A program made the position numbers and the translations under genes. The notes beneath the pieces are model-generated. The model ran no database searches. It saw nothing but the letters and a program-made list of their open reading frames with translations, and had not been told where the DNA came from. 64,000 nucleotides of DNA from TPA_inf: Saccharomyces (lineage: Eukaryota): the NCBI GenBank assembly GCA_000146045.2, contig BK006943.2:384001-448000 (forward strand). Reading direction: 5' to 3'. Below, in pieces: positions 7,042-54,610 of this stretch; the stretch's first letter is position 1; every line of letters starts with the position of its first letter.

Positions 7042-7114
7042 ATGCTCCAGGGGAGGTTCGAACTCTCGACCTTCAGATTATGAGACTGACGCTCTTCCTA
7101 CTGAGCTACTGAAG
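7042..7114 (-). tRNA. tM(CAU): tRNA-Met (CAU) elongator, 73 nt
   Basis: Reverse complement is GCTTCAGTAGCTCAGTAGGAAGAGCGTCAGTCTCATAATCTGAAGGTCGAGAGTTCGAACCTCCCCTGGAGCA. The anticodon loop is CTCATAA and a T-run lies downstream. It is identical to the copy at 38937..39009. Confidence 0.93.
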
Positions 7115-9603: not shown

Positions 9604-9966
9604 GAGTATCTCTCTATATATTTCTTTTTACGCAGTCTCTTCAATCTCTTTATGTGGGCTTTCGCACCTCTTATTTATATATATATATATACACTGAATC
9701 ATATAAACTTTTTTTTATATTGAATCTAATATATTATCAAACGGAAACTTCGGCTGAATTTCATACGTATATTGATTAAAGTGGAAAGGGCATCGGAAAA
9801 GTAAGAAAAGCTTAAAAAAATTGAAAAAAAAAAAAAAAAAAATAAAAAATAAAAAATAAAAAAACCTATACAATACATACATATGTATATGAATATAAAC
9901 CTGGAACGATGTGTCTTTAAAAATAGTTGAACGAACTACTCGGACATACCCCTACATCACTTAAGG

Positions 9967-14936: not shown

Positions 14937-18473
<3,537 letters not shown>

Positions 18474-27233: not shown

Positions 27234-29444
<2,211 letters not shown>

Positions 29445-29506: not shown

Positions 29507-29524
29507 CACGTGTGCAGCCACGTG
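29507..29524. promoter_or_regulatory. Two CACGTG E-boxes (Pho4-type) 108-125 bp upstream of the VTC4 ATG
   Basis: ttcaCACGTGtgcagcCACGTGcgg, with CACGTG at 29507-29512 and 29519-29524. VTC4/PHM3 is a known PHO-regulon gene. Confidence 0.6.
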
Positions 29525-31930: not shown

Positions 31931-32036
31931 TGAAACGGACAGGAATTGAACCTGCAACCCTTCGATTGCAATCTTATTCCGTGGAATTTCCAAGATTTAA
32001 TTGGAGTCGAAAGCTCTACCATTGAGCCACCGCTTC
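31931..32036 (-). tRNA. tW(CCA): tRNA-Trp (CCA) with a 34-nt intron, 106 nt
   Basis: Reverse complement is GAAGCGGTGGCTCAATGGTAGAGCTTTCGACTCCA-[intron]-AATCGAAGGGTTGCAGGTTCAATTCCTGTCCGTTTCA. Confidence 0.9.
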
Positions 32037-48643: not shown

Positions 48644-49000
48644 ATGTCGTTCAGCGGAAAAAAATTTAGGTCTAGAAGACAGCAGCTAGTATATGAAGCA
48701 TCTTTAGCGGGGCGATACAAAAAAGCATTGAGTAAGCACCCCTTTCTTTTTTTTGGTTTACCATTTTGTGCAACAATAGTATTGGGTTCGTTTTGGTTGT
48801 CAAGCTTTACAGCGATCAAGTACGAGCAAGGCGATCGTAAAGTTCAGGAAATTAATGAAGAGGATATCTTGAAAATAAGGAAGAATCAAAGGGAATTTGA
48901 TATTAAAGAAGAATATTATCGTTTACAAGGTCTTTCTGAAGAGGATTGGGAGCCTGTGCGCGTCGCTAGGTTAAAGGATGAATCTGAGAATGTCTGGTAA
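48644..49000 (+). CDS. COX16: Cytochrome c oxidase assembly protein Cox16 (118 aa)
   Basis: MSFSGKKFRSRRQQLVYEASLAGRYKKALSKHPFLFFGLPF, 118 aa. Confidence 0.9.
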   Translation: MSFSGKKFRSRRQQLVYEASLAGRYKKALSKHPFLFFGLPFCATIVLGSFWLSSFTAIKYEQGDRKVQEINEEDILKIRKNQREFDIKEEYYRLQGLSEEDWEPVRVARLKDESENVW

Positions 49001-51162: not shown

Positions 51163-51926
51163 ATGAATGGAATTCAAGTGGACATCAATCGTTTGAAAAA
51201 GGGCGAAGTCAGTTTAGGTACCTCAATGTATGTATATAAGAATTTTTCCTCCCACTTTATTGTTTCTAAAAGTTCAATGAAGTAAAGTCTCAATTGGCCT
51301 TATTACTAACTAATAGGTATCTTATAATCACCTAATAAAATAGTATGGCCGTGACATTTAAGGATGGTGTGATACTAGGTGCTGATTCACGTACCACCAC
51401 TGGTGCGTACATAGCTAACCGTGTGACAGATAAATTAACGAGAGTACATGACAAAATTTGGTGTTGTAGGTCCGGTTCTGCAGCAGACACGCAGGCGATT
51501 GCCGACATTGTTCAGTACCATTTGGAATTATATACTTCTCAATATGGTACCCCCTCCACAGAGACTGCTGCCTCGGTGTTCAAAGAATTATGTTACGAAA
51601 ATAAAGATAACCTTACTGCTGGTATAATTGTGGCTGGTTATGATGACAAAAACAAAGGGGAAGTATATACTATTCCATTGGGTGGCTCCGTCCATAAGCT
51701 GCCTTATGCGATAGCAGGATCTGGCTCTACTTTCATATATGGGTATTGTGATAAAAACTTTAGAGAAAATATGTCAAAGGAAGAAACCGTAGATTTCATA
51801 AAGCATTCGCTATCGCAAGCCATTAAATGGGACGGATCTTCCGGTGGTGTTATAAGAATGGTTGTTTTGACAGCTGCTGGTGTGGAACGTTTGATATTCT
51901 ACCCTGATGAATATGAACAACTATAA
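51163..51926 (+). CDS. PRE3: 20S proteasome beta1 subunit Pre3; two exons: 51163..51227 and 51344..51926; 215 aa
   Basis: Exon 1 encodes MNGIQVDINRLKKGEVSLGTSI and is followed by GTATGT. The branch is TACTAAC at 51305-51311 and the acceptor is aaatag, ending at 51343. The track ORF 51345..51926 is exon 2 only. The Thr-protease motif GTT..GADSRTT lies at the splice junction. Confidence 0.88.
51228..51343 (+). other. PRE3: PRE3 intron (116 nt)
   Basis: Canonical GTATGT...TACTAAC...TAG signals. Confidence 0.85.
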
Positions 51927-52305
51927 TAGACCCCAAAAGAACAAATTCTGAGTGATTACTTCTCTTTATATTTGTTAACAAATGCCTCTGGATCTACACT
52001 GATATAACATATAATAGTCTATAACCTCTTTCTCTTTTTCTCTTCGCTTTACGCTTTTTTCTCTAACTGTTAGAACGACAAAGTATCTCAGAAGGGAATT
52101 TCGTAAGCAAGATATTTTACGACTAATCATTTTTTTGTTGTATAAAAACGTATGTGAGATTGATTCACTAATTCTTCGGAGTCCTGGAAGGCTTACCTTA
52201 TCTATGCATTCGTACAGTTGTGTGCAATGTTAAAAATGGTGACTGTATCTACGTATCTATAAAAAAAGGTTAACTACCGGAAAATCATTTCTTCTCGTAA
52301 AGTGT

Positions 52306-52425
52306 ATATTTAGGTTCGGAAATCATAAACATTGTTTTTTTGTGTTTTTTATTTTTAAATAAAAAGAATAAATATTTTATATTAAAAAATAAATTTTAAA
52401 GTAAATTAATTATTTAACACGTGAT
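52306..52425 (-). other. CEN10: Point centromere CEN10: CDEI (ATCACGTG, reverse complement of 52418-52425), CDEII (52332-52417, 86 bp, >90% A+T), CDEIII (TGTTTATGATTTCCGAAcctaaatat, reverse complement of 52306-52331)
   Basis: The three elements are in the canonical order and spacing. The CDEIII core TGTTTATGATTTCCGAA has the invariant central CCG. It is flanked by PRE3 (YJL001W) and AVT1 (YJR001W), as expected for chromosome X. Confidence 0.9.
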
Positions 52426-52801
52426 TAAGTTACTCTAATATAATCCTATTTAATAATTAGTAGAGTTGTTGAGAACGAGTATAATATTATTTTTTTTTTA
52501 TTTTTTTGTAGGTTCTTTGGCCATCCTAAATAGAATAAGCATCCACAACAACTAAACTGGTATTTTGTTATACACAACGCGTCTTGGTTAGGCATCTGTT
52601 TTGTTTTAGCTATTGTTCATCGCGTTTTTTTTTTTCTTATCTCTTTTACCGAGGGGCGAAAATAGCGATAGATCGAGAATATAAATAAATAAAATATTGT
52701 TGTGTTGTGTAGTTCTAAAGAAAAATTTTACAGTGAAAAGGTAACACCGGGGAGTCATTACGTAGACTTACGTATTCTGTATAACTGATTCCGAGACGCA
52801 A

Positions 52802-54610
52802 ATGCCTGAGCAAGAACCATTGAGTCCCAATGGCCGTAAGCGCTCTGAGGTTCACTATATCTCAATCCCATTGAACAGAGGTTCCGCATTCTCACCAGAT
52901 GATTCTGTATCACAGTTTCAGTCTGACGGGTTCATGACACGTAGGCAATCCATATTGGACCATCCTGTGGGCTCATTTAAGGGAGTTAATTCTTTAAGTC
53001 GATTTGCGACTTCGTTGAGGAGAGCCAATTCGTTTCGTAATATCGAGCTAAATGCGGATAATGAAAGATCCTTTTTCAAAGAGAGTAACGATGAAACCTA
53101 CGATCCGGATACTTTAGCACCAGCTTTGGACGGTAGAAGATTATCAGTAACTTTAAATAATGCTGGTCGCCCGCGCATTACTAATTTGGCTAACAACGAT
53201 AGAGTTAGTACAGCCAGCATGGCTATTCACGATGATGATTATGGGTCCATCCAAAATTCAACAATTGGGGATTCTGGGTCAATATTACGCCCTACTGCCT
53301 CCTTAACAGAAATGATGAGTGGTGGAGCGGGGAGAAGGTTTACAAATAATGACATGGATTCAATTGTAGTGAAGAGAGTGGAGGGTGTAGATGGTAAGGT
53401 AGTAACTCTTCTTGCTGGTCAGTCGACCGCTCCACAGACCATATTCAACTCAATCAATGTACTGATTGGTATTGGGCTCCTGGCGTTACCTCTTGGTTTG
53501 AAATACGCCGGCTGGGTTATAGGACTTACTATGCTTGCAATCTTCGCCTTAGCGACATTTTGTACTGCTGAACTTTTGTCTAGGTGCCTAGATACAGATC
53601 CAACTTTGATATCTTACGCGGACTTGGGATATGCAGCATTTGGTACAAAAGGGCGCGCACTAATTTCTGCTCTTTTCACACTTGACCTACTGGGTAGTGG
53701 GGTGTCCTTGGTGATTCTCTTCGGAGATTCTTTAAATGCTCTATTTCCTCAATACTCCACCACTTTTTTCAAAATAGTTTCATTTTTTATCGTTACACCC
53801 CCGGTTTTTATACCATTGAGTGTTCTATCTAATATCTCGCTTCTGGGAATCCTTTCAACAACCGGAACTGTGCTAGTCATTTGCTGCTGCGGACTATACA
53901 AGTCGTCTTCTCCAGGTTCATTAGTTAATCCGATGGAAACGAGCATGTGGCCGATAGATCTAAAGCATCTCTGTTTATCTATAGGTTTATTGAGTGCCTG
54001 CTGGGGAGGACATGCGGTTTTTCCCAACTTAAAGACAGATATGAGGCATCCAGATAAATTTAAAGACTGTTTGAAAACTACCTATAAGATAACATCGGTT
54101 ACGGACATAGGTACTGCAGTTATTGGCTTTTTGATGTTTGGAAATCTTGTTAAAGATGAAATTACTAAGAACGTTTTGCTGACGGAGGGATATCCAAAAT
54201 TCGTTTATGGTCTGATTTCAGCGCTTATGACTATCATTCCTATCGCAAAGACCCCATTGAACGCAAGACCTATCGTTTCTGTATTGGACGTTCTGATGAA
54301 TGTGCAACACATAGATGAAGCGGCCAGCGCCATAAAAAGAAGAGCTGCGAAAGGCCTTCAAGTATTCAATAGGATCTTTATTAATGTTGTCTTCGTTTTG
54401 ATAGCTATTAATTTCCCTGAATTTGATAAGATTATCGCATTTCTGGGGGCCGGTTTGTGTTTTACAATTTGCCTAATTTTGCCGTGTTGGTTCTATTTAA
54501 GATTGTGCAAGACAACAATCAAACCATGGGAGAGAGTGGCTTGTCACGTAACCATATGTATTAGTGTCGTGTTGTCCACATTAGGTGTTGGTGCTGCAAT
54601 TATTTCATAA
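52802..54610 (+). CDS. AVT1: Vacuolar amino-acid transporter Avt1 (602 aa)
   Basis: Hydrophilic N-terminus followed by about 11 TM helices of the AAAP family. [25 protein letters not shown]. Confidence 0.88.

Follow-up and report, generated by a model that had tools for sequence, protein, structure and literature searches.

The element between PRE3 and AVT1 is almost certainly CEN10, the point centromere of Saccharomyces cerevisiae chromosome X

The roles of Cbf1, CBF3 and Cse4 at point centromeres have been described (PMC13017519; PMC1557759), and the sizes of the elements that make up a point centromere have been defined (PMC3155921). CDEII, the spacer between CDEI and CDEIII, has a species-specific and narrowly constrained length (~84 bp, +/- 3%) together with a very high A+T content (PMC1557759), contains runs of A and T (PMC1557759; PMC3155921) and is among the fastest-evolving sequences of the yeast genome (PMC3155921). 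CEN10 is one of the centromeres at which ChIP-seq peaks of Cse4, Mif2, Ndc10 and Ndc80 have been found (PMC3547844). A Cse4 nucleosome has also been reconstituted on CEN10 DNA and Mif2 footprinted on it, with Mif2 on the side of the dyad nearer to CDEI, whereas on CEN3 it occupies the other side (PMC5710141). CEN10 is already known: it has been cloned, annotated and biochemically used for decades, and there is nothing new in identifying it again. Here we describe how an element found in 64 kb of S. cerevisiae DNA (referred to below as the window) compares with these systems.

Both strands of 52100-52640 were read, and the minus strand, which runs ...acttaATCACGTG ttaaataattaatttactttaaaatttattttttaatataaaatatttattctttttatttaaaaataaaaaacacaaaaaaacaa TGTTTATGATTTCCGAACCTAAATA tacact..., carries CDEI, CDEII and CDEIII in canonical order at 52307-52425. 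The whole element measures 119 bp when read directly, and its parts are as follows.

52425..52418, minus strand: CDEI, ATCACGTG, 8 bp, an E-box that fits RTCACRTG, the consensus of CDEI
52417..52332, minus strand: CDEII, an 86-bp spacer with many A and T runs
52331..52307, minus strand: CDEIII, TGTTTATGATTTCCGAACCTAAATA, 25 bp, with the central CCG at 52319..52317
52331..52315, minus strand: the 17-nt core of CDEIII, TGTTTATGATTTCCGAA

The sequence-only reading that preceded this analysis had described a CDEI and a CDEIII with a central CCG on either side of an 86-bp CDEII of more than 90% A+T, all on the bottom strand, and we confirmed each of these points. CDEII is 94.2% A+T (81 of 86 bases; 44 A, 37 T, 5 C and no G) and ranks first in A+T among all 63,915 86-mers of the window; in the composition profile, GC dips to 11-13% at the element, compared with 37.7% across the window. 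The span proposed in that reading, 52306-52425, is nearly exact and differs from ours by one extra base (120 versus 119 bp), which matches the 26-nt form of the CDEIII consensus. Its description of a textbook 125-bp centromere holds for the full anatomy but not for the length, which is 119-120 bp, 125 being the nominal textbook figure. The 26-nt consensus is matched at 52306-52331 with three mismatches, all of them in the degenerate 3' flank, where CCTAAATA differs from the AANNNAAAAA-type consensus at three positions that are degenerate among species. The bases of CDEII are also arranged in longer runs than their composition predicts. Seven A/T runs of at least 4 cover 37 bases, as opposed to 20.7 in composition-matched shuffles (P = 0.029), and runs of at least 5 are likewise in excess over such shuffles (P = 0.017). 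The element is non-coding, with no ORF of at least 80 aa over 51927-52801.

Each of the ingredients of this element can be found elsewhere in the window, as would be expected if a Cbf1/Pho4-type promoter E-box had by chance ended up close to a TTCCGAA and to AT-rich intergenic DNA. RTCACRTG occurs five times, CACGTG is present at 4 sites besides CDEI, nine of the ten copies of TTCCGAA lie outside the element, and two places reach an AT content of 90% or more, with 9814-9899 at 90.7%. However, the three parts are combined nowhere else in the 64-kb window, which holds one tripartite element. The 17-nt CDEIII core pattern has a single match when both strands are scanned, and the 26-nt consensus with at most 3 mismatches has one match against 0.01 expected. 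The pattern TCACGTG-N(76-90)-TGTWTWTGNTTTCCGAA is likewise matched once in the window and not at all in 100 dinucleotide-preserving shuffles. From the motifs and their spacing alone, the analytic expectation is ~1.2e-7 per 64 kb, or ~2e-5 per 12-Mb genome. We consider a chance juxtaposition vanishingly improbable on these numbers, and raw sequence suffices to recognise a point centromere with essentially no false positives.

Two other places in the window carry one ingredient each. The tract at 9814-9899 ranks second in A+T among the 86-mers of the window and consists of a long stretch of poly(A) type between an RNR small-subunit ORF and an RRN7-like ORF; it has neither CDEI nor CDEIII and serves as a negative control for the notion that AT-rich means centromere. 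A pair of CACGTG E-boxes at 29507-29524, spaced 12 bp apart, is found ~110-125 bp upstream of the minus-strand ORF 27234-29399, which encodes a VTC/SPX-domain protein of 721 aa. These probably serve a polyphosphate-synthesis gene as promoter sites of the Pho4/Cbf1 type, indicating that CACGTG by itself is not centromeric.

A full-text literature search with the CDEIII string TGTTTATGATTTCCGAA gave no match, and a search with the coordinates 436307/436425 gave unrelated matches only, mostly SNP identifiers. Rfam reported no RNA family at the locus of the element; across the window it gave six matches, each of them a tRNA. Five of these lie at 7042, 12726, 30965, 38937 and 40431. The sixth, at 31931-32036 on the minus strand (56.4 bits), is absent from the ARAGORN output and probably contains an intron, given its 106 nt.

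The element sits in an 875-bp gap between two genes, and two further genes to the left match named S. cerevisiae proteins.

51164..51926, plus strand: PRE3 (proteasome beta-1), the left neighbour, with the ATG of exon 1 at 51164, an intron, and exon 2 at 51345-51926
52802..54610, plus strand: AVT1 (vacuolar amino-acid transporter), the right neighbour, 602 aa
49221-50651, minus strand: OST1, with an identical sequence among the named S. cerevisiae proteins
48644-49000, plus strand: COX16, likewise matched exactly by a named S. cerevisiae protein

The location between PRE3 and AVT1, as the earlier reading had it, is borne out by protein matches on both sides. Exon 2 of PRE3 (51345-51926, plus strand) gave a 433-bit match over residues 23-215 to PDB chains with the name 'Proteasome component PRE3', and the intron signals GTATGT and TACTAAC are found upstream of this exon. 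The AVT1 product agrees at every residue with Avt1p of S. cerevisiae S288C (NP_012534.1). Genes of the window are ordered RNR small subunit, RRN7, BBC1-type SH3, VTC4-type (VTC/SPX), adenylate cyclase, COX16, OST1, PRE3, then, beyond the element, AVT1 and MPP10, an order that we take to be that of the chromosome X pericentric region. The SH3 gene, an ORF of AIM3-BBC1-type at 14937-18410 on the minus strand (1157 aa), contains at ~16110-16340 a degenerate unit of 9 bp (three codons) repeated in tandem about 25 times, a low-complexity protein repeat. Orthologues in sister species bear chromosome-10 locus tags (SKDZ_10G, SMKI_10G, SUVZ_10G and SEUBUCD646_0J). Gene order and locus tags, together with the orthologous elements described below, support the earlier assignment of the window to chromosome X around its centromere, and the element acts as the anchor that fixes the window to this pericentric region of S. 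cerevisiae. In SGD, CEN10 has the coordinates chrX 436307-436425, as would be expected for a window start at chrX 384001, and it is flanked by YJL001W/PRE3 and YJR001W/AVT1. The name 'CEN10' as used in papers is presumably that of the element in the window, a connection made through the reference annotation.

To compare the locus among species, orthologous loci were retrieved via the COX16 and AVT1 orthologues from S. paradoxus, an S. mikatae-type contig, S. kudriavzevii (two assemblies), S. arboricola, S. uvarum and S. eubayanus. In all six other species a single CDEI-CDEII-CDEIII element, in the same orientation, lies in the PRE3-AVT1 gap. CDEI reads A/GTCACGTG in 7/7 Saccharomyces species (mean pairwise identity 0.94), and in CDEIII the columns TG..T.TG...TCCGAA do not vary among the seven, with a mean pairwise identity of 0.71 for CDEIII as a whole. 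CDEII stays within 83-87 bp and 85-94% AT, and its mean pairwise identity over the seven species is 0.597, compared with 0.595 +/- 0.03 for CDEII against shuffled CDEII. The 100-bp flanks are likewise unalignable among species (identity 0.51-0.54). Since CDEI and CDEIII are conserved while the identity of CDEII is at the level of shuffled sequence, selection maintains two short stretches, in keeping with sequence-specific protein sites, and a spacer of given length and composition, but not the spacer sequence. That the three-part arrangement and its spacing recur in six other species, in spite of CDEII and flanks that cannot be aligned, also argues against a chance juxtaposition and for a centromere.

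The same comparison bears on whether the AT-rich DNA between PRE3 and AVT1 could instead be an ARS, or a bidirectional promoter or terminator element of the two genes. The element is intergenic and AT-rich, several 10/11 matches to the ARS consensus WTTTAYRTTTW lie inside it, and CDEI is also a transcription-factor site. No exact ARS consensus is found in the 875-bp gap, however, and near-matches are expected in DNA that is 94% AT. Moreover, neither an ARS nor a promoter would explain an invariant TG..T.TG...TCCGAA located 83-87 bp from an invariant E-box with an interior that is free to change. We therefore regard these functions as very improbable and favor a centromere at this site.

Outside Saccharomyces the locus differs. 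PRE3 is not adjacent to AVT1 in K. africana, T. globosa or E. gossypii. In Nakaseomyces bracarensis the two genes are adjacent, and their 438-bp gap (L020 3563-4000) has neither a CDEI-CDEII-CDEIII pattern nor a strongly AT-rich tract; the centromere of this species is not in the PRE3-AVT1 gap. The position of the element is thus kept in seven Saccharomyces species and not in one more distant species with PRE3-AVT1 adjacency. In Torulaspora globosa (CP059271.1, L022), the gene upstream of AVT1 is a fasciclin-domain gene, and a CDE-like element is found on the minus strand between this gene and a dynamin-like gene (L022 ~698-530). Its GTCAGCTG and TTGACTTCCGAA are separated by ~136 AT-rich bp, and it may be the pre-duplication counterpart of CEN10.

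Variation within S. cerevisiae was examined in an alignment of the window with 10 strains (L008-L017), giving 11 sequences. None of the 8 columns of CDEI is variable, and 2 of the 25 columns of CDEIII are, both peripheral (52312 and 52307). In CDEII, by comparison, 22 of 86 columns vary (25.6%), making it five times as variable as the flanking intergenic DNA (38 of 756 columns; 5.0%). In the ~25 bp of CDEII adjoining CDEIII (52332-52357) the window allele is unlike all ten other strains: the window reads AAAAATAAAAAACACAAAAAAACAA there, and the others carry variants of A(A/C/T/G)TTAAAAAAAACAAAAAAACA(T/C)T. CDEII is 86 bp long in the window, 85 bp in 9 of the 10 strains, and 86 bp with a different sequence in the remaining one. 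This divergence of the window CDEII falls within the known high polymorphism of CDEII, and our default reading is neutral turnover under a high centromeric mutation rate. It is unlikely that the strain-specific variation alters the segregation fidelity of chromosome X or, alternatively, the side of the dyad occupied by Mif2. Taken together, the comparisons across species and strains reproduce the published picture, in which the binding sites are conserved and CDEII evolves fast, held only in length and composition.

Another reading is that of an inactive centromere relic or a 'centromere-like region'. The window shows 64 kb, so that the remainder of the chromosome may carry a further CDE element, and centromere-like regions do exist in yeast (PMC3547844). 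The published ones, however, are without the CDEI and CDEIII consensus motifs (PMC3547844), both of which are intact here. That CDEI and the core of CDEIII are conserved both among the 11 S. cerevisiae sequences and among the 7 species indicates continuing purifying selection, which argues against a relic. So does the position of AVT1 at about 0.43-0.48 Mb on chromosome-scale contigs that are mostly 0.72-0.83 Mb long, as this fits the single centromere of chromosome X. With this evidence, there is very little chance that the element is a relic or a centromere-like region rather than an active centromere.

Everything by which a point centromere can be recognised at the level of sequence was found at this locus: CDEI, the length and A+T content of CDEII, its A/T runs, the CDEIII core, the order and orientation of the parts, and the evolutionary signature. 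Based on the tripartite anatomy, the uniqueness statistics, the location between PRE3 and AVT1, the orthologous elements and the signature of selection, and with no substantive observation to the contrary, we conclude that 52307-52425 on the minus strand is almost certainly the active CEN10, the point centromere of S. cerevisiae chromosome X.

The way in which it would act can be outlined from established knowledge of point centromeres and the papers cited above. CBF3 (Ndc10, Cep3, Ctf13 and Skp1) would recognise CDEIII, with the zinc-cluster domains of Cep3 reading the central CCG, and this recognition would be essential. A Cbf1 bHLH-zipper dimer would bind the E-box of CDEI, a contribution expected to be non-essential and to improve the fidelity of segregation. 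Through Ndc10 and the chaperone Scm3, CBF3 would then direct the deposition of a single Cse4/CENP-A nucleosome, which would wrap the 86-bp AT-rich CDEII between CDEI and CDEIII. Mif2/CENP-C and the rest of the kinetochore would assemble on this nucleosome and capture one spindle microtubule. A point centromere, of which each chromosome has just one, is further defined by making an ARS plasmid stable in mitosis and meiosis, and by losing its function when the central CCG is mutated. As far as sequence can speak to it, the locus fits this mechanism, with two constrained sites about one nucleosome-core gyre apart and a spacer that appears to be constrained only in composition and length.

Among known systems, the centromere-like regions and the 2-micron STB locus resemble the element in that Cse4 can be accommodated on a short stretch of AT-rich DNA, but centromere-like regions have no recognisable CDEI or CDEIII and need Cse4 overproduction (PMC3547844), whereas the element in the window has both motifs. 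The likeness is much closer to other point centromeres of the Saccharomycetaceae (CEN3, CEN4 and CEN6, and the CEN10 of S. paradoxus through S. eubayanus), which have the same RTCACRTG, a ~84-bp AT-rich CDEII with A/T runs, and the TG..T.TG...TCCGAA core. Among the orthologous CEN10s the CDEII sequence is unrelated between species, as is the norm for this family. With S. cerevisiae CEN10 itself, the element agrees in everything compared: in anatomy, in the lengths of its parts (8 + 86 + 25 bp), in orientation, in flanking genes and in chromosome-10 synteny.
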